Source: a virus
Lineage: Duplodnaviria > Heunggongvirae > Uroviricota > Caudoviricetes
DNA length: 11,069 nucleotides
Strand: one strand, 5' to 3'
IMG/VR virus record: IMGVR_UViG_2585427777_000015
The position numbers were made by a program, and so were the translations under genes. Below are positions 1-8,507 of this stretch, one piece after another. Position 1 is the first letter of the stretch; the number at the start of each line of letters is the position of its first letter. Under the pieces are notes generated by a model. That model had not been told where the DNA came from, did not search any database, and was given only the letters and a program-made list of their open reading frames with translations.

Positions 1-285
1 TTCCGTCATGGCACCGAGAAAATCATTCAGCGTACCTGGTCTGGAGCCTTCATAGACGGTAATGGTCCCAACATGTGAAGGCGGAAAACCTTCAACCAGC
101 AGGGTGACGCTGTACTGACCATGCTCAACATCCATGCTGTAACGTCCGGCTTCATCCGGATTTTCAGAGGCCACCGTGTTCACCACCACCGTGCTGCTGG
201 TTCGTCTGGCCTTCAGCACAATGGTGCAGTTCTGTACTGGTTTTCCTGTGCCATCTTTAAGCACGCCAGAAATTTTTACTGTCAT
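1..285 (-). CDS. stf: Side tail fibre protein Stf, N-terminal 95 codons (partial, continues beyond window start)
   Basis: Minus-strand ATG at 285-283 preceded by GGTGGAAAAGT; translation MTVKISGVLKDGTGKPVQNCTIVLKARR...GFPPSHVGTITVYE matches my recollection of the conserved N-terminus of lambda Stf (orf401). Position after lom is the lambda gene order. Confidence 0.85.
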   Translation of the reverse strand, partial: MTVKISGVLKDGTGKPVQNCTIVLKARRTSSTVVVNTVASENPDEAGRYSMDVEHGQYSVTLLVEGFPPSHVGTITVYEGSRPGTLNDFLGAMTE

Positions 286-296
286 ACTTTTCCACC

Positions 297-332
297 AATA
301 AAAAAAGCCCGCAGCAGTGACGCCACGGGCTT
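297..332 (-). terminator. Putative intrinsic terminator between lom and stf
   Basis: Minus-strand hairpin (stem AAGCCCG/CGGGCTT, plus 305-332, 14-nt loop) followed by a T7 run (plus A-run 300-306). The loop is long, so only moderate. Confidence 0.45.
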
Positions 333-436
333 CAGGACAGTGTAACTTTACGTTTCCTCAAACGCAGTTCACCCCATAAGGTGGATGAACCTGCGTATCA
401 TAACAATATTTACAGAAGATAAATCGGCGTCTGTTG

Positions 437-1036
437 TCAGAAACGGTATCCGATACCAACAATAAATGCATCCGTTCGCCAGTCGCCACTACCGGAACCT
501 TCATAAGCAAGGTCAATGGTCACGGATTCGGTCGGATTAAACTGCACGCCAGCCCCCCACGCCAGAGACGTGTTGCTGTGGCGACCGTCATCACTTCCGG
601 TCAGCACATCGTGCGTTTTCCCCTTGTTGTCAGTTACGCGGAGATAATCCCCGGAGAAAGTCGACACACGGCTGTAAGCCACACCCACCATCGCATACGC
701 GCTGAACCATTCATTCACGCGTACAGACGGCCCCGCCATCACGCTGAACCAGCGGTTACGCACGGAATCTTCATGCCAGCGGGTATCGCTGTAGCGCGTT
801 TTTTGCTCATCCTCAGCATTGGCATAACTGAAGGACGTAATCAGCCCCAGCGCGTCCGTAAACTCATAACGGTATTTCACGTTAATCCCGTTCAGATCAT
901 CACTACCGGGAACGTTCGTCGAGGCATGGAGATACCCCGCGCTCAGCGTGGACTGATGTTCTGCTGCACTCGCTGGCGTAGCAGCGGCGACCTGCCAGAC
1001 TACTGCGGACAAAATAACAGCACATAATTTACGCAT
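437..1036 (-). CDS. lom: Lom outer-membrane protein (Ail/Lom/OmpX beta-barrel family)
   Basis: 199-aa ORF with signal peptide (MRKLCAVILSAVVWQVAAATPASA) and C-terminal motif DLAYEGSGSGDWRTDAFIVGIGYRF ending in aromatic F, matching lambda Lom as I recall it. SD GAGAGG upstream of ATG at 1036-1034. Located directly after J as in lambda. Confidence 0.9.
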   Translation of the reverse strand: MRKLCAVILSAVVWQVAAATPASAAEHQSTLSAGYLHASTNVPGSDDLNGINVKYRYEFTDALGLITSFSYANAEDEQKTRYSDTRWHEDSVRNRWFSVMAGPSVRVNEWFSAYAMVGVAYSRVSTFSGDYLRVTDNKGKTHDVLTGSDDGRHSNTSLAWGAGVQFNPTESVTIDLAYEGSGSGDWRTDAFIVGIGYRF

Positions 1037-1057
1037 AATTACCTCTCGCTTTTCTGC

Positions 1058-1084
1058 AATAAAAAAGGCGCCATTTCTGGCGCC
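1058..1084 (-). terminator. Intrinsic terminator between J and lom
   Basis: Perfect 6-bp GC stem GGCGCC/GGCGCC (plus 1067-1084, loop ATTTCT) followed on the minus strand by TTTTTTATT. Confidence 0.6.
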
Positions 1085-1103
1085 CGTATCTGGGTTATAA
1101 AAT

Positions 1104-4100
1104 TCAGCTAATCGTGATGCCTGCAGTGGCTTTCTTCATCACCACAACCAGCAAATCGCTGATACTTGCTGTGGGATACCAGTTATTTACCAGCCATGCT
1201 GACACCGAAAACTCCAGTGTCATGTGACCGTGACCGGCAGGCATATCAATAACACCACTGTAAATCAGCGTATTATCCAGCGCGGTACGGTTATAAATTT
1301 CAGCACCGTTTTTCCGCACTATCAGACGGCATGAGGAGTAAATATCAGTATGCTCTTTCTCATGTTTAGCGCCGCTGAATGCCACCGCCGGAATAACAAT
1401 CTGCCGGTCAAACGGCTGATCGTCATAAACCCTGACGGTAATGGTTCCTGATGGCCACCGCTCCGGTGCACGGGAGTCCCGAGGGAAAGCTTTGCCCACT
1501 GTTTTAACGAGATCGCCTTCAATCTGGTTCGCGGACAATTTTCCCAGAACCCGACAGTTCTCGTTAATCGTGACGTTGTTGAGCGTCCCGGAGTTCGCAT
1601 TCACGTTACCGCTGATATCGGCATTTTTCGCCGTCAGCCGCCCGTCCGGTGTCAGGGAAAATGCCGGAGGATTACCGCCGCTGGTAATGGTGGGAGCCGT
1701 CAGATATTTCAGGAACACTTCATTCATAAATATCTGATCGCCCTGACCAACAAACATCGGCTTTGTGTTGCCATTCGCAGGATTAATCATCGCAATCCTG
1801 TCTGCCGCCAGCAGCACCTGACTCTGCATTCCTGCTGGCGTATTCTCAATACCGGCACCGATACCCGCAATATAAAGGCGTCCGTCCTGCATCTGCTGCA
1901 GTTTCACGGCCCACATGCTGTTCAGGTTATTATTTGTATCAACCTGAACTTTCTGTATCTGCTGGATTGCCGCACTCTGATTTTCCAGTTTTTTATTGAC
2001 GGTCTGCGTGATTTCATTGCTGACATTCGTAATGGACGTCCTGATTTCAGCCAGGTCCGGCGCAAGCTGACCGTTATCAATCTGCGTCCACAGCTCCTGG
2101 GCCAGATGTGTTTTCCCGATTTCTCCTTTGAAAAAATCCAGGTAACCTTCCGCATCATCGCTCGCCCGACCGACAGCCTCCACGAATGCCGATTTGCCAA
2201 CAGTATTCACACTGCGGATATAAAAATAATAATCATGGCCCGGCTTGATATTGATACTGGCAGCTATCCAGTACAGCGCCGAGCCAAGATAGCGGGCTGC
2301 GGTTTCAACCTGCCTGATATCCGCAATCCGCTTTTCTGAGAACCAGAACTCAAACTGTACCGTCGGATCATAAACGGCAAGATACGGCGTGGCGGTTATC
2401 TGAAAATAGCCCGGCGTCAGCTCAATCCGCGACGGCGCTGCCGGTGCGGCAATCCGGAACGATACCGATGCCGGATCGCCCTGCTGCCCCCAGGCATTTG
2501 CCGCCCGGACTGTCAGCCTGTAGTTCCCTGGCGCCAGTTGCGTGAAGCGGTATGTGGTTTCCGTCGTCCTGGCCGTGCTGACCAGCCGCTCACTGCCATC
2601 ATCCGCTGCCACGGTCAGGCGAAGCAGGAAGCTCACGCCCTTCACCACCTTCGGCGTGTCCCAGCGGGCCAGTACCTGATACTCCCCGCTGTCTGCGGTG
2701 ACTTCGGCAGTCAGGTGCTGCACCGCTGGCGGCGTGACACCATTCACCGTGCCGCTCTGGTCGCCGTCAAAGTGCGCCCCGTTATCCACGATGGCTTCTT
2801 TTTCCGGTACATGCTGCACGGCGGTGATGGCATACGTGCCGTCATCGTTCTCACGGATACTCACGCAGCGGAACAGGCGCTGGCGCAGCGTCGGCAGCTT
2901 CAGCCCCCACACGCTGTATTCGGCAACGCCGTCAGGAACACGGCTCACTTTCACCTTCACGCCGTCGGTGACGGACTGGACCTCCACGCTGACCGGATTC
3001 CCCTGTCCGTCAACCAGGCTTATCAGCGTGGTGCCGGAGGATGGCAGCGTGATTTCACGGTCGAGCGTCAGCGTCCGGGTCTGGCTGTTTACCGCCAGCA
3101 CGCGCCCGCCGGTGCTGATACCGGCATAGTCATCATCACAGATTTCAATGACATCGCCCGGCACATGGCGAAGCCCTTCTGCGCCGACGCTGAAATCCAC
3201 GGTCTGCGTTTCCAGCAGTTCTGTTTTAATCAGCCACAGCCCGGCGCGGTGTGCCTGCCCCCGACTGGTACAGCCAAAGGCATCCATCTTCGTGACGTTA
3301 CGACCGTAACGGGCAATGGCCTGCGTGTCCTCCACAAGCTCTGTCGCCGTCTCCCAGCCGTTATCCGGGTCAATCCAGTTCACCTCAACGGCATTATGGC
3401 GGTCCTTCAGGGCGCTGAAGCTGTAGCGGAACGGCGCGCCATCATCCGGCATCACCACATTACTGCGGTTATAGGTCCACACCTTATCCGACGGTCGGTC
3501 CTGCACGAACGTCAGCGTCTGCCCGTTCCATACCGGCATACAGCGCATCGCCGAGCAGAAATCACTGAGCACATCCCACGCCTTGCGCTGTGTGGTCAGG
3601 TAAGCGTTACAGGTGATGCGCGGCTCCGTGCCACCAAAGCCATCCGGCACTGACTGGTCGCAGTACTGGCCGATGACATACAGCGCCCATTTATCCACAT
3701 CCGCCGCACCAAGACGTTTCCCCATGCCGTAGCGCGGGTGGGTCAGCATATCCCACAGACACCATGCCATGTTGTTGCTGTATGCTGGCTTAAACGTTCC
3801 GTCCCAGATACCGCTGTATTGCCGCGTCTGCGGGTTATAGTTCGACGGCACCTGCAGAATGCGCCCGCGAAGATGATAATTACGGCTCACCTGCTGGCTG
3901 CCGAACTGCTCCGAGTCCACCTGCACGCCGACCAGTGCCGTGTTCGGGTAGCACTGTTTCACATCGATGATTTCGGTGTATGACGACCAGAGCGTTTTGT
4001 TCTGCAGCTGGTCTGTGGTGCTGTCCGGCGTCATCCTGCGCATCCGGATATTAAACGGGCGCGGCGGCAGGTTACCCACCACCACCGAGGCCAGATACTG

Positions 4101-4583
4101 TGAGGTGGTTTTGCCTTTAATGGTGATGTCTTTTTCCGTCACCCAGCCACCGTTACGTTGTATCTGAACCAGCAGGCGGACTTCCGACGGATTCCGGTCC
4201 CCCTTTGAGGTGGTTTCCACCAGAGCCTGCACACCGAAGGTAAAGCGCAGACGGTCGATGTTTGCCGACGTGATGGTCCGGGTGATCGGCGTGTCATATT
4301 TCACTTCCGTACCCAGCACCGTCTCGGAACCGGAGGATTCAAATCCCTCCGGCGGTGTCTGCTCCTGCTCACCTGCCCGGAACACCACCGTGACACCGGA
4401 GATGTTGGTATTCCCCTCACTGTCCAGCACCGGTGTACTGTTCAGCAGCACGCTTTTTAATCCATCCACCGGACCTTCAATCGGCCCTTCGCTGATGGCA
4501 TCGATCACACTCAGTAATTGCGTGGATTTCAGGTTGTCCTTCGCTTCGCGCGGGGTATGCCCCTTACTGCTTCCTTTACCCAT
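1104..4583 (-). CDS. J: Tail tip fibre / host specificity protein J (central tail fibre, receptor-binding)
   Basis: 1159-aa ORF starting [54 protein letters not shown], the lambda gpJ N-terminus as I recall it; size (lambda J about 1132 aa) and position between I and lom agree. SD GGAG/GAGGA upstream of ATG at 4583. Confidence 0.95.
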
Positions 4584-4596
4584 TCCTCACACTCCA

Positions 4597-4625
4597 TAAA
4601 CAACAAAGCCGCCCAAAAGGCGGCT
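4597..4625 (-). terminator. Putative terminator downstream of the lipoprotein moron, immediately upstream of J
   Basis: Minus-strand hairpin AGCCGCC-TTTTG-GGCGGCT (plus 4607-4625) followed by TTGTTGTTTATGG (U-rich but interrupted). Confidence 0.45.
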
Positions 4626-4649
4626 CATGAGTTACAGCAGGATTAACTA

Positions 4650-4988
4650 TTATTTACATGCATTAACACTATCAGCAAAAATTTTTGGCGTTAATGCTGG
4701 TACACGTTCATAAAGAGTAAAACTACTGCCATTTCCTGCTTTTTTGATATCAAGCACAACATCATATCCCCCCATAGCCTGTGGAACTAAAAGGCTTACC
4801 CCATTCTCAATAGGAAGGGATGTTATAGGTGTTCCATTACCAGTCCATTGTCTGGATATGCAGCCTGACAATTCATCAATATTTTTTAATGAATTACCTT
4901 CCATTACAGGTTTTCCGGATTTTACGTAATCCAAAGATTTACATCCTGTTAAGGCAATAATCGTGCAGAATAAAATCGTTTTGTTCAT
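4650..4988 (-). CDS. Small predicted lipoprotein (about 112 aa), moron inserted between I and J; function unknown
   Basis: ORF with probable ATG start at 4988-4986 (the track's longer ORF starts at an upstream TTG). N-terminus MNKTILFCTIIALTGC is a lipoprotein signal peptide with lipobox LTGC. Region 4630-5060 is visibly AT-rich against GC-rich tail genes. Lambda has only about 60 nt between I and J. Confidence 0.6.
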   Translation of the reverse strand: MNKTILFCTIIALTGCKSLDYVKSGKPVMEGNSLKNIDELSGCISRQWTGNGTPITSLPIENGVSLLVPQAMGGYDVVLDIKKAGNGSSFTLYERVPALTPKIFADSVNACK

Positions 4989-5060
4989 ATAGCTAACCAA
5001 TAGAATAATTATCAGTGTTCGATATAAATATTAAATCAGTTAGAACATGAGTAAATAATA

Positions 5061-5702
5061 TTACCGCCCAATTACCACAACCTGACCACCATCCCCTTCA
5101 TCTGCCGTGCTGATCTCCTGAGATGCCACACGTGACCCCACGCGCATTTCACCGTACAGAACAGGCAGGACATTGCCCTGGGCAACCATGTTATCCAGTG
5201 AGGAGAAATAGGTGTTCTGTTTGCCGTTATCCGTTGTCTGTGTACGTGGAGTTTTGGGTTTAGGGGCCAGCATCTGTGCGACACCACCAAGCGTCATCGC
5301 TGCCCCCATAGAAAAGAGAATGTTACTGAAAGCGATACTGATTCCTGGCATCCAGATTGCCGTAGCAATCAGCGCCGCACCCAGCACTGCCTGAAAAACA
5401 CCACCACTTTTGGCACCCGCCAGACGCGGTACGATGTGGATCACGGCACCATTTGCCAGCGGCTCATTAAGACGGGATGATAATTCGGTTTCTCCTGCAT
5501 CCCGCCCGGCAATCCGTACCTGATACCAGCCATCGCTCAGTTTCTGACGAAACGCCGGGAGCTGTGTGGCCAGTGCGCGGATGGCTTCAGCCCCCGTTTT
5601 CACACGAAGGTCGATGCGGCGGCCAAATCGTTGCAAATCCCCGTAAAGGCAGATGCGTGCCATGCCCGGTGACGCCAGAGGGAGTGTGTGCGTCGCTGCC
5701 AT
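5061..5702 (-). CDS. I: Tail tip assembly protein I
   Basis: 213-aa ORF MAATHTLPLASPGMARICLYGDLQRFGRRIDLRVKTGAEAIRALATQLPAF... matching lambda gpI as recalled; its 5' end overlaps the 3' end of K by about 100 nt in another frame, as in lambda. Confidence 0.9.
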   Translation of the reverse strand: MAATHTLPLASPGMARICLYGDLQRFGRRIDLRVKTGAEAIRALATQLPAFRQKLSDGWYQVRIAGRDAGETELSSRLNEPLANGAVIHIVPRLAGAKSGGVFQAVLGAALIATAIWMPGISIAFSNILFSMGAAMTLGGVAQMLAPKPKTPRTQTTDNGKQNTYFSSLDNMVAQGNVLPVLYGEMRVGSRVASQEISTADEGDGGQVVVIGR

Positions 5703-6347: not shown

Positions 6348-7046
6348 TTACTGCGAAAGTTTGTTAATGGAAAGGAAGCCGCCAAAGTTGCCGACGTTAT
6401 TGCGAAACTTACAGCCGCTCAGGCATTTGCTGCATTTATCCTTCGTGATATCGGACGTCGGCTGGTCATATTCATCCGCGACTGCCGGACCGTGATAACC
6501 GCACTCATCACCGCGATAGGTCCAGGTGCAGGTGTTGGCCAGCATGATACGCCCCGGAAAAACAGCGCCATCCGTTTCCGTCGGCGTGGACAGTACAAAG
6601 GAGGCACTCACCGCGCTCAGTTCGCTGCACTGCTCGATGCGCCAGCGGCTGATCACCTCCTGCTCCGGATCGGCGTCACTGTTTCCGTTGACGAAGTTCA
6701 CCGCATCCAGAAAACGGGCGTAAACCTTACGCCGAACCACCGTTCCGCCGACCAGACTCTGCAGATCTTCCGCCATCCCGGTGACCATACCGTACAGGTT
6801 AGAAACCGTCAGCGTGGGGCGCGTACTGGTGCCTTTGCCATTCAGTTCAAAACCACTCCCCTGAATGGGATACGGCTGATACTGTCGCCCCTGCCAGGTG
6901 ACCGGCTCACCTTTTTCGTTCTGCTCATTACAGAAAAAATAACGTTCTCCACCGACCTCTGTCAGGTCGATTTCCCAGAGCACCACGCTGGCCGACTGCT
7001 CCGCACGGGTGCATTCATTCAGTGTTTCCTGCCGGATATCCTGCAT
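6348..7046 (-). CDS. L: Tail tip protein L
   Basis: 232-aa ORF, same length as lambda gpL; C-terminal cysteine cluster (CTWTYRGDECGY ... CSKCLSGCKF) consistent with the Fe-S binding region of gpL. Start ATG overlaps the M stop by 1 nt, as in lambda. Confidence 0.9.
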   Translation of the reverse strand: MQDIRQETLNECTRAEQSASVVLWEIDLTEVGGERYFFCNEQNEKGEPVTWQGRQYQPYPIQGSGFELNGKGTSTRPTLTVSNLYGMVTGMAEDLQSLVGGTVVRRKVYARFLDAVNFVNGNSDADPEQEVISRWRIEQCSELSAVSASFVLSTPTETDGAVFPGRIMLANTCTWTYRGDECGYHGPAVADEYDQPTSDITKDKCSKCLSGCKFRNNVGNFGGFLSINKLSQ

Positions 7047-7378
7047 CAGTTCACCACCTGTTCAAACTCTGCGCTGAACTCAACACGCAGCATACTGACC
7101 CGCGACGACCATTTTGCGCAGGTCACCTTTATCTGCCGCCACTCATAAGGCGGCGTCCACAGAAAGGCTTTCCAGCCCCCGTGCTCTTCCAGAAACGACT
7201 CCAGTACCGTGGCCTCCTCACGGGGGACAGAAAGCGTCACGCTGTACGTTTTCAGGTTGGCATTCAGCCCGGCAGGCGCTCGCTGAGAATAGCCATCACC
7301 AAAGCGCACCTTTCTTACAGAAGGGGCCGAAGCCACATCCATACCGGGTTTCACTTTCCAGCGGAAGGTCTTCATCAT
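7046..7378 (-). CDS. M: Tail tip protein M
   Basis: 110-aa ORF MMKTFRWKVKPGMDV... matching lambda gpM size and position; ATG overlaps the H stop (ATGA). Confidence 0.9.
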   Translation of the reverse strand: MMKTFRWKVKPGMDVASAPSVRKVRFGDGYSQRAPAGLNANLKTYSVTLSVPREEATVLESFLEEHGGWKAFLWTPPYEWRQIKVTCAKWSSRVSMLRVEFSAEFEQVVN

Positions 7379-7620
7379 CCACCTCCGGAGAACAGACCAC
7401 CATCGCGCATCTGTGCCTGAATTTCATCACGGGCACCCTTGCGGGCCATGTCATACACTGCCTTCATCATCTGTGGACCTGGCAGACCATTCGTACCGTC
7501 GTTCTGAATCACCACGTGATTGTTCTGATTAAAATTAATGCCTTCAGCCCGCCGCATCTGCGCCGGACTTCCGGCACCGCCCACATAACCACCTTCCGCA
7601 TATATGCACCATATACCACT
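7375..7620 (-). pseudogene. H: 3'-terminal remnant (about 80 codons) of tape-measure gene H
   Basis: Frame open from an in-frame stop at 7621-7623 to the TGA at 7377-7375; translation ...GGAGSPAQMRRAEGINFNQNNHVVIQNDGTNGLPGPQMMKAVYDMARKGARDEIQAQMRDGGLFSGGG resembles the lambda gpH C-terminus and has the classic 4-nt overlap with M. A full H would be about 850 codons; the upstream sequence is an unrelated gene. Confidence 0.8.
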
Positions 7621-8507
7621 TCATATTGCGTACCGTGTTCTTGTTTCCACGCGTATGTCGTGTCGCCACAAATCCAGGGGACTGATGCCGGACTTCCACC
7701 GTGACACTGCGCCGCCAGCCCGGCAAGGTCAGCACGGAACTGCTGTACCATTGCAAGAAATGCTGCTGGCTGCTGGGCGTAACTGGCATTCGTCATATCG
7801 AATTCCCCCTGCATCCAGCATATCGCCAGCAAAACGTTTTTCGGGTTTTTCTGCAATGCTGCCTTCGTGCGGAAAAGCAGATCCTGATATAACGGCTTAC
7901 CCACTCCCCAGCGAGCCGAATCCTGACTGGCTCCCGTGGACTCGCTGAATGTCCCCTCCGTGCCCTGGGTGAATGCCGAACCACCACGACAGCATGGTAC
8001 CAGCAGGATCCCCGCATTATTAGGGATATACGGAAGCAGTTTTTTGGCAATATGTAAGCCCTGTCCGACACAGCCGTACTGCCCTTTGCTCAGGTCAGCC
8101 CGGGGATGGTTAATCGTACTCATATCCTGAACATCATGCAGACAATGGTCAGCAGGAATGATGTCGTTAAATACGCATACTTCACCACCGGGAGTCACTG
8201 TGTTACGACGGGCCAGTTGCTTAATGCGCGGATGGGGCGCATCGTATGAATCCGGAAGCGGAAGCCCTTCACCGTAAGCCATGGCATTGGATTGCCCGGC
8301 CAGTACGATGACGTAGTACCACTCCGGCTCAGTTGCACCACTGACGACCACATCACCTTCTGCTGCAATCGCCTGCATCAGGGTATAAGGGGTTATGGCC
8401 ACCGGACTACCAAACGGCTGCCAGCCCTCCTTCAGTTTTTGTGTCAGTCGTTTCGCAAGGTCTGACGGCGATGCCGCCCTGACCACGTCATAGTGTTTAA
8501 ATGCCAT
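7509..8507 (-). CDS. NanS-p-like sialate O-acetylesterase (DUF1737 N-domain + SGNH/SASA esterase), apparently 3'-truncated and fused out of frame to the H remnant
   Basis: Strong SD GGGAGGA before ATG 8507. N-terminus MAFKHYDVVRAASPSDLAKRLTQKLKEGW (DUF1737-like), then VIVLAGQSNAMAYGEGLPLPD...PHPRIKQLAR...ILLVPCCRGGSAFT...CWMQGEFD...WICGDTTYAWK, which tracks E. coli NanS/YjhS as I recall it. Similarity ends near YGAY (about 7602); the last ~30 codons read H-remnant DNA in the wrong frame. Confidence 0.8.
   Translation of the reverse strand: MAFKHYDVVRAASPSDLAKRLTQKLKEGWQPFGSPVAITPYTLMQAIAAEGDVVVSGATEPEWYYVIVLAGQSNAMAYGEGLPLPDSYDAPHPRIKQLARRNTVTPGGEVCVFNDIIPADHCLHDVQDMSTINHPRADLSKGQYGCVGQGLHIAKKLLPYIPNNAGILLVPCCRGGSAFTQGTEGTFSESTGASQDSARWGVGKPLYQDLLFRTKAALQKNPKNVLLAICWMQGEFDMTNASYAQQPAAFLAMVQQFRADLAGLAAQCHGGSPASVPWICGDTTYAWKQEHGTQYEVVYGAYMRKVVMWAVPEVRRRCGGLKALILIRTITW

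Follow-up and report, generated by a model that had tools for sequence, protein, structure and literature searches.

The window (the whole stretch of DNA analysed here, 11,069 nucleotides of IMG/VR virus record IMGVR_UViG_2585427777_000015, Caudoviricetes) carries a tail operon in the lambda-type order M-L-K-I-J-lom-stf, as judged from its open reading frames and from Pfam matches for I, K and lom; the start of stf lies at the left end of the window. Gene J is one intact open reading frame (1104..4583, minus strand) that, by the ORF list and its translation, encodes a protein of 1159 aa. This protein matches the NCBIfam family lambda_TipJ (NF049904) over its full length and belongs to the family: it scores 2385 bits where the cutoff is 1950, with residues 1-1159 aligned to profile positions 1-1163. 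Its Pfam domains are, in order, FNIII-A_GpJ (86-207), Phage-tail_3 (330-498), Ig_J (610-714), Ig_J_second (716-818), Phage_Tail_Tip (872-1000) and Ig_GpJ_C (1029-1159); this order of a hub, two FNIII/Ig domains, a fibre and a C-terminal Ig-like receptor-binding domain (RBD) fits the lambda TipJ family. A complete prophage of Escherichia coli 042 has the same gene order as the tail operon of the window, and its gpJ is identical to the window J at 1155 of 1159 residues (99.7%). The features of the locus are collected in Table 1.

Table 1. Features of gene J and its neighbours in the window (aa positions within J refer to the 1159-aa protein)
Feature	Window position	Strand	Basis
Lambda-like N-terminal part of J (hub domains and two FNIII/Ig), aa 1-820	2124..4583	-	804/820 aa identical to lambda J
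Replaced alpha-helical shaft and fibre top, aa 821-900	1884..2123	-	Lambda alignment, drop in DNA identity
Beta-prism central straight fibre, aa 872-1000	1584..1970	-	Pfam PF09327 Phage_Tail_Tip, E 2.2e-31
Receptor-binding cassette, aa 992-1159	1107..1610	-	Equals 'gpJ 1A2' insert
Ig-like RBD proper, aa 1029-1159	1107..1499	-	Pfam PF12421 Ig_GpJ_C, E 5.1e-37
Hypervariable segment 1, aa 1037-1043, SRAPERW, predicted loop	1455..1475	-	18-sequence alignment
Hypervariable segment 2, aa 1075-1082, EKEHTDIY, hairpin turn	1338..1361	-	18-sequence alignment
Hypervariable segment 3, aa 1099-1108, 10 residues, turn	1260..1289	-	18-sequence alignment
Hypervariable segment 4, aa 1129-1134, AWLVNN, loop	1182..1199	-	18-sequence alignment
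112-aa lipoprotein 'moron' between I and J	4650..4988	-	Lipobox LTGC, 40% G+C island
G+C-rich terminator-like hairpin between lipoprotein stop and J start	4606..4626	-	Consensus scan, pattern match only
lom (Ail/Lom outer-membrane protein), downstream of J	437..1036	-	Pfam Ail_Lom, E 4e-124

The window J is 83% identical in amino acids to lambda J (J02459, 1132 aa), and we observed that the identity changes along the protein: 98% over aa 1-820 (804/820), 7 of 18 aligned residues plus 28 extra residues in the shaft (aa 821-866; the name of this alpha-helical domain is taken from Ge et al. 2024, PMC11101478), 32% at the top of the prism (11/34, aa 867-900), 75% in the prism (68/91, aa 901-991) and 46% over aa 992-1159 (77/168), with 40% in the Ig_GpJ_C RBD itself (53/131, aa 1029-1159). 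The original prediction that the N-terminal part of J is lambda-like thus holds. It had also read the length of 1159 aa, against about 1132 aa for lambda J, as a sign of indels, under the coordinates 1104-1900, which correspond to J aa 895-1159 and span the beta-prism fibre and the RBD. The length difference is real, but it is located in the helical shaft and not in the RBD, the net 27 additional residues being a 28-aa shaft insertion (about aa 837-866, window 1986..2075) minus one RBD residue. A different C-terminus would have been contradicted, as the original prediction stated, if the final 250 residues had proved nearly identical to lambda J; when aligned, the RBD is only 40-46% identical, and given the segment identities (46% over aa 992-1159) there is no such near-identity. 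The hub, the FNIII domains, the overall architecture and the Ig-like fold of the RBD are common to the window J and the lambda J structures (PDB 8iyk, 8xcj, 8xck); lambda J differs in having a shaft 28 aa shorter, and its receptor is LamB, not OmpC.

The DNA of the gene is a mosaic. Nucleotides 1-2400 of J are 89-98% identical to lambda, identity then falls to 28-69% (nt 2401-2880) and is 89% over nt 2881-3000, around a conserved 20-residue stretch in the prism at which published gpJ chimeras were joined (Brödel et al., PMC11338833). Against the J gene of VT1-Sakai, nt 1-2160 are just 59-88% identical, whereas from nt 2161 on (the 3' 1.3 kb) identity is 98-100%. The same division is seen with a wider set of relatives: in VT1-Sakai (Sp15), PPompW prophages and the Stx2a phages with long tails from E. 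coli O157/O145, the 3' 1.3 kb of J is 98-100% identical in DNA and the RBD 98-100% identical in protein to the window J, but the 5' 2.1 kb of their J genes is just 59-88% identical and their records are without the lipoprotein gene upstream; the VT1-Sakai J is moreover split by mutation, unlike the intact window J. Other prophages combine a given RBD type with either a long or a short shaft, and the shaft and RBD modules reassort freely among prophages. About 40% of complete E. coli genomes contain the window RBD type, which makes the RBD finding as such ordinary and already known. We found no receptor data in the literature for VT1-Sakai-type J proteins or long-tailed Stx phages; the Chi-hotspot paper on lambdoid phages has no description of the PhiR/mEp phages, which carry related J genes. 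A 2026 preprint on receptor prediction was set aside as a guide, as it concerns Drexlerviridae GpJ and not lambda-like J.

An experimentally characterised counterpart of the cassette is 'GpJ 1A2', for which Brödel et al. (Nature 2024, PMC11338833) print a DNA sequence in their Supplement 1. The 1A2 sequence was read by machine from a PDF and has dropped bases, so that a frameshift-tolerant alignment was used. In this alignment 155 of the 168 codons for J aa 992-1159 are identical to the 1A2 insert, eight are unreadable and five are discordant (13/168 codons cannot be confirmed); all five discordant codons are beside OCR damage and one of them is an in-frame stop. The same procedure gave just 126/219 for lambda J against the 1A2 text. 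At every cleanly read codon, then, the final 168 aa of J agree with the insert of gpJ 1A2. The suggestion that the C-terminus could be a mosaic replacement of a non-LamB type is borne out by this match to an OmpC-dependent insert, together with the VT1-Sakai-like 3' cassette.

In 1A2 the insert was recoded and fused by engineering to residues 1-964 of lambda J (PMC11338833), so that the chimera has lambda's short shaft and prism, whereas the window J is a natural full-length protein with a shaft 28 aa longer and a diverged prism top. Its OmpC dependence, like the solved complexes considered below, is known from the literature. In an MG1655 host deleted for lamB and ompC, with ompC variants supplied on a plasmid, delivery by 1A2 was 76-99% for 20 out of 23 OmpC variants (e.g. 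98.3% with OmpC G17 from the O157 strain EDL933) and about 1-2% for G1 (the OmpC of MG1655, K-12), G2 and G40 (PMC11338833). In the source sheet for panel C of Extended Data Fig. 2 of the same paper, the EDL933 OmpC strain is given the low numbers of panel B; this looks like a duplication, contradicted by the text and by three other sheets.

An AlphaFold2 model of aa 992-1159 has block-mean pLDDT values mostly of 77-96 across the Ig-like RBD. Its best structural matches (TM 0.73-0.76) are A8 gpJ (9wca/9wcb; 62% identity, TM 0.73, with E 1.2e-18 for 9wcb) and lambda gpJ (8xck/8xcj; 46% identity, TM 0.75). PDB 9wca is A8 gpJ in the closed state, and 9wcb, entitled 'Open state of A8 gpJ 713 central tail fiber with OmpC G17 from E. 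coli EDL933', contains OmpC chains; according to the model, the window RBD has the fold of this solved OmpC-bound gpJ RBD. A8 is also the next closest RBD after 1A2, with 66% identity across the C-terminal 168 aa. It is an OmpC user that has the same fold and the conserved 12-residue C-terminal strand in common with the window J and the 1A2 type, but the two differ in four hypervariable segments, A8 having a 5-residue insertion and a 4-residue deletion, and A8 accepts K-12 OmpC, which 1A2 does not (PMC11338833). We defined the hypervariable segments as the runs of lowest conservation in an alignment of 18 RBD sequences mapped onto the secondary structure of the model. The four segments would be the receptor-contact loops (segment 1 may correspond to one of lambda's loops L1-L4).

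Two other receptor assignments were weighed. The C-terminus could be a diverged lambda- or phage 21-like domain that still binds LamB: the Ig-like fold and the Pfam family are those of the lambda RBD, and work on phage 21 indicates that lambda-type RBDs shift among LamB, OmpC and OmpF by few mutations. We regard this as extremely improbable, since the RBD is only 40-46% identical to lambda and the 1A2 insert is functional in a host deleted for lamB, while in wild-type, LamB-positive MG1655 it delivered to 5.2% at an MOI of 50, compared with 97.7% for wild-type lambda at an MOI of 174 (PMC11338833); these identities and published data largely refute a LamB-type RBD. Phage 21, considered as an OmpC phage, was dropped from the comparison: its native receptor is LamB.

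That the C-terminus is aimed at yet another receptor, such as FhuA (used by HK022, N15 and phi80) or a different outer-membrane protein, is very unlikely too. Many lambdoid phages do use FhuA, and binding to OmpC, OmpX and BtuB has been reported for Gifsy-1 J, from which additional receptors for J are conceivable. However, HK022 J (FhuA-dependent, with cor) and HK97 J, both lambda-like tail-tip proteins, align with the window J only in the tail-tip fibre region (28-39% identical) and have no sequence similarity to its distal part, and on this ground a distal end of the FhuA or HK97 type was rejected; moreover, the gene that follows J is lom, and no cor-type gene follows J. Gifsy-1 J was set aside as an OmpC model, its C-terminus being a different module (reportedly just 18% identical to that of lambda). 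The reading we favour, with high confidence, is that the 3' end of J is a non-LamB recombinational cassette with an OmpC-type RBD of the 1A2 kind, joined to a lambda-like hub-forming part.

Upstream of J, the original prediction had placed a possible exclusion lipoprotein. The gene is a genuine lipoprotein gene, but nothing ties its product to exclusion or to OmpC. The protein has a signal peptide and a lipobox LTGC with Lys at +2 and is predicted to be an outer-membrane lipoprotein; it matches PHROG 914 (function unknown; E 1e-32). It has no match in Pfam, PADLOC or PDB sequences, and NCBIfam gives no functional lead. Foldseek searches of PDB and BFVD returned no informative match, the best being Flpp3 (E 0.011) and an uncharacterised Pseudomonas phage protein. 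In HK022 and HK97, too, the I|J site is occupied by morons, and gp22 of HK97, at this same site, is unrelated to the window lipoprotein. Homologues are found in Klebsiella, Enterobacter, Kluyvera and Jejubacter: in Klebsiella prophages they lie between K and I, and J there exceeds 3100 aa, and in Enterobacter they lie between T and the tape measure. Overall the lipoprotein occupies three different operon positions and precedes J genes of at least four RBD types.

A role in superinfection exclusion, in which the lipoprotein would mask OmpC in the way that Cor and Llp mask FhuA, would agree with the signal peptide and lipobox, with the moron architecture (a low-G+C island followed by a hairpin) and with the RBD types found downstream: in the IMG/VR loci, 29 out of 35 complete J genes that follow the lipoprotein have an RBD of the OmpC types 1A2 or A8, an enrichment that is no test because the sample of loci is clonal. 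Against it, the lipoprotein is also found upstream of at least two other RBD types, so that it is not strictly linked to one receptor-binding type; most phages with a 1A2-type RBD are without it, and the DNA of its gene has no match in 50,697 phage records. The K/I and T/tape-measure positions of the homologues and the lack of a PADLOC match or of an informative match among solved or viral structures argue in the same direction, and we consider the exclusion role unlikely. It is similarly doubtful that the lipoprotein is a new prophage factor at the cell surface, e.g. one that masks OmpC or otherwise blocks the entry of lambda-like phages; as a moron it could travel in the tail operons of Enterobacteriaceae prophages.

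The prophage itself appears truncated. At 8100..7601 the window matches, with 100% identity, the first half of an esterase gene from the late regulatory region, and at 7602..7300 it matches, again with 100% identity, the final 228 nt of the tape-measure gene H together with M, the two segments overlapping by 2 nt at the junction 7601/7602; holin, lysis, terminase and head genes, Z, U, V, G, T and most of H are absent from the window. As tail-tube, tape-measure, head and lysis genes are missing, the window J may never enter a particle. J could then be a silent passenger in a truncated remnant, useful just as a cassette to be recombined into other resident lambdoid prophages, and the junction, the missing genes and the free reassortment of shaft and RBD modules are consistent with this. 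On the other side, the J reading frame is intact and nearly identical to the J of the complete 042 prophage, and the junction is seen nowhere else: it is absent from 5426 complete E. coli genomes, and a junction 40-mer has no match in IMG/VR, species-representative genomes or metagenome contigs, so it could be an assembly artefact and not a real deletion. We give the silent-passenger possibility slightly less than an even chance. It concerns the use of the gene in this genome, and the receptor assignment is unaffected by it.

In the preferred assignment of J to OmpC, the cassette consists of shaft, fibre prism and Ig-like RBD, common to the J genes of VT1-Sakai, PPompW and many Stx phages. With the 1A2 insert placed on lambda J residue 964, lambda particles inject DNA via the trimeric porin OmpC and not via LamB. 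By analogy with lambda-LamB and A8-OmpC, the variable loops of the trimeric Ig-like domain would be inserted into the porin trimer from its extracellular face, and the spreading of the Ig-like domains may, again by analogy, pass up the beta-prism, so that the helical shaft flips and the tail tip opens. The functional data were obtained with a chimera in which shaft and prism are those of lambda, and not with the full-length window J; the native protein, whose shaft is 28 aa longer, probably behaves like the 1A2 chimera. Since the longer helical shaft is found independently of the RBD type, one possibility is that it adjusts how the tail tip is triggered.

It is textbook knowledge that the C-termini of J are exchanged in mosaic fashion, and this RBD variant, very common in E. 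coli and experimentally characterised, adds no new biology. What the assignment provides, by way of the 1A2 data, is a receptor for this J variant: the OmpC of most natural E. coli types, and not LamB. It ties a natural J allele to a delivery vector that was engineered and has already been applied in animals, and it helps to predict which hosts can be infected by the numerous E. coli prophages and Stx phages with this cassette.

At its distal end J has a swapped-in receptor-binding module, very probably OmpC-specific, of the natural type that was the source of the published 1A2 chimera; the J that carries it is lambda-like and has a longer helical shaft. On the minus strand of the window lie the distal genes of a lambda-type tail operon, and the J among them is intact: the match to the curated lambda_TipJ model spans the full length, all six Pfam domains expected for lambda J are present, and 1155 of the 1159 residues are identical to the gpJ of a complete prophage in E. 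coli 042. Identity with lambda J (1132 a.a.) is 83% overall, with a very uneven spread along the protein (see the table). The original prediction had suspected a C-terminus of non-lambda type, and alignment bears this out, the last 250 residues not being near-identical to those of lambda J. The difference in length (28 extra residues minus 1) lies outside the receptor-binding domain (RBD), in the alpha-helical shaft, as the element that flips upon receptor binding is termed in the lambda structure paper (PMC11101478).

Features of the window, and identity of successive segments of J with lambda J
Feature	Position	Strand	Remarks
Side tail fibre gene, first 95 codons	left edge of window	minus	
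lom	437..1036	minus	after J
J	1104..4583	minus	single intact ORF, 1159 a.a.
J segment	a.a. 1-820		804/820 identical (98%)
J segment	a.a. 821-866		7/18 aligned residues identical; 28 extra residues
J segment	a.a. 867-900		11/34 identical
J segment	a.a. 901-991		68/91 identical (75%)
J segment	a.a. 992-1159		77/168 identical (46%)
J segment, Pfam receptor-binding domain	a.a. 1029-1159		53/131 identical (40%)
Lipoprotein ORF, 112 a.a.	4650..4988	minus	between I and J
I	5061..5702	minus	
K		minus	between L and I
L	6348..7046	minus	
M	7046..7378	minus	
H, last 76 codons		minus	first in tail-operon order, before M
Three tRNA genes	9016-9265		downstream of methyltransferase gene; ARAGORN: Arg(tct), Arg(tcg), Met(cat)
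DNA methyltransferase gene (N6_N4_Mtase)	9315-10364		Q-proximal late regulatory region
94-a.a. ORF	10515-10799		Q-proximal late regulatory region

The contrasting DNA identity to lambda and to VT1-Sakai (the Sakai Stx1 prophage, AP000400) along J indicates that the gene is recombinant, with a 3' cassette of wide distribution behind a lambda-like 5' part. Against lambda, identity is 89-98% in nt 1-2400, 28-69% in nt 2401-2880, 89% in a short conserved stretch (nt 2881-3000) and 52-59% in the remainder; against VT1-Sakai the pattern is reversed, 59-88% in nt 1-2160 being followed by 98-100% from nt 2161 through the stop. Over its final 797 nt, J shares 99.9% identity with VT1-Sakai, O145/O157 PPompW prophages and other phages. 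J tips with this RBD type are very common in E. coli: sequences with 95% or more DNA identity to it are found in ~2,250 of the 3,805 matching records, which come from 5,426 complete genomes of the species, and at the protein level the type occurs in 53 phage records, including many O157 Stx2a phages. VT1-Sakai (locus L002) has the same 3' J cassette; its J, however, is split by mutation into two ORFs, and its I-J spacer (240 nt) is without the lipoprotein gene.

Among solved structures, the J C-terminus is best matched by 'A8 gpJ 713' (9wca/9wcb; 427 bits, versus 358 bits for lambda J). A8 is one of two chimeras in which natural E. coli gpJ C-termini were joined to lambda J at residue 964, the lambda particles being redirected to OmpC in place of LamB (Brödel et al., Nature 2024, PMC11338833); entry 9wcb contains OmpC chains and is titled 'Open state of A8 gpJ 713 central tail fiber with OmpC G17 from E. 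coli EDL933'. A8 is 66% identical to the last 168 residues of the window J. The recoded DNA of the second chimera, 'GpJ 1A2', is printed in the supplement (PMC11338833); bases were dropped when this text was machine-read, and it was aligned to the window J by frameshift-tolerant dynamic programming. Over the 168 residues past the fusion point (a.a. 992-1159), 155 codons are identical, eight are unreadable and five are discordant; all five adjoin plainly damaged text, and among them is an in-frame stop, impossible in a working gene. Upstream of the fusion the printed sequence tracks lambda, as expected, and lambda J run through the same procedure gave 126/219. The receptor-binding cassette of the window is thus, within the limits of the machine-read text, the 1A2 insert.

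In MG1655 with lamB and ompC deleted and ompC variants supplied on a plasmid, 1A2 particles at the highest dose gave 76-99% delivery for 20 OmpC variants (98.3% with G17, the EDL933 variant) and ~1-2% for three others (G1, the MG1655 variant, G2 and G40), and on LamB-positive wild-type MG1655 they gave 5.2% at MOI 50, versus 97.7% at MOI 174 for wild-type lambda (PMC11338833). By these figures, measured on the 1A2 chimera, the receptor of the window J would be OmpC, with specificity at the level of the OmpC allele, and LamB would be neither needed nor used. In the source data for Extended Data Fig. 2 (supplementary file 10, PMC11338833), the 1A2/A8 numbers of panel C (OmpC-EDL933) equal those of panel B (OmpC-MG1655) and conflict with the text, Fig. 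1b, Extended Data Fig. 1 (G17) and Extended Data Fig. 8a; panel C is probably a duplication or copy error in the deposited sheet. A FhuA-type tip, as in HK022 (a FhuA-dependent phage that carries cor), or an HK97-type tip was also considered and rejected: HK022 J and HK97 J resemble the window J only in the tail-tip fibre region, and a search for similarity to its distal domain found none.

The AlphaFold2 model of a.a. 992-1159 (18 homologues as input) has a mean pLDDT of 78.9, with high confidence over most of the beta-sandwich. Foldseek places 9wca/9wcb (62% identity, TM 0.73) and lambda 8xck/8xcj (46% identity, TM 0.75) far above all other matches. Conservation within the RBD family is lowest in four short segments (a.a. 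1037-1043, 1075-1082, 1099-1108 and 1129-1134), all in loops or turns of the model, which may correspond to the receptor-contact loops of lambda.

Shaft and tip of J are separate exchangeable modules. Among 35 complete J genes from related IMG/VR loci (forms of 1159, 1131, 1160, 1132 and 1137 a.a.), long and short shafts are freely combined with different RBDs: the 1A2-type tip occurs with the long (+28 a.a.; 1159 a.a.) and the short shaft (1131 a.a.), and the A8-type tip likewise (1160 and 1132 a.a.). Two IMG/VR loci (L035 and L039) have natural J genes whose RBD is 100% identical to that of A8. In two J fragments (P0048 and P0050, alignment A1) the first half of the RBD is 1A2-like and the second half different, which suggests recombination within the RBD itself.

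The I-J spacer (4584-5060) is a 477-nt island of 40% G+C, with a G+C-rich hairpin after the lipoprotein ORF, immediately ahead of J. The 112-a.a. product, a member of PHROG 914 (function unknown) with no match in Pfam or PADLOC, has a signal peptide, a conserved lipobox (LTG|C, Lys at +2), the motif PQAMGGYDVVLD and two more conserved cysteines; its AlphaFold model is confident (pLDDT 85.5) and found no informative neighbour among solved and viral structures. The island is present in 334 of the 5,426 complete E. coli genomes, and a DNA-level search of phage records returned none. In Klebsiella prophages (where J exceeds 3,100 a.a.) homologues with 50-60% identity sit between K and I; in Enterobacter they sit between T and the tape-measure gene. 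HK97 and HK022 have annotated morons, unrelated to this lipoprotein, at the I|J and K|I sites; given these differing positions and shared sites, the gene appears to be a moron that moves among lambda-like tail operons. In IMG/VR, the J genes downstream of it have a 1A2-type tip in 26 of 35 cases, an A8 tip in three and a third type in six, and it additionally precedes two 1084-a.a. J genes of a fourth kind. The original prediction of a possible exclusion lipoprotein upstream of J stands as to the lipoprotein; exclusion is a possible role that draws no support from the present findings, and the gene is not tied to one receptor type.

Upstream of M, H breaks off: 7602..7300 matches the final 228 nt of H together with M in the 042 prophage at 100% identity, and 8100..7601 matches, also at 100%, the first half of a SASA/NanS-p-type esterase gene, normally found after the Q antiterminator region and before the lysis genes. 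These segments, within 7300-8507, overlap by 2 nt (junction 7601/7602), and the esterase, cut at about codon 302, is joined directly to the end of H, so that the lysis, packaging (terminase), head and tail-shaft genes are missing from the window prophage. All 5,426 complete E. coli genomes lack the junction, and a 40-mer spanning it has no match in IMG/VR, species-representative genomes or metagenome contigs; the explanation is a strain-specific deletion (a truncated prophage) or else an assembly chimera. The layout near Q, with a methyltransferase gene and a small ORF, is one that Stx-type lambdoid prophages typically show, but the window contains no stx gene. The CAT-anticodon tRNA is probably a lysidine-modified tRNA-Ile2, because RefSeq annotates its counterpart in a near-identical prophage as tRNA-Ile.

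Should the deletion be real, the prophage itself could not assemble this copy of J, whose value would be mainly as a recombination cassette. The J of the window represents ordinary mosaicism in a well-studied protein, and the receptor answer for its type is already in the literature.
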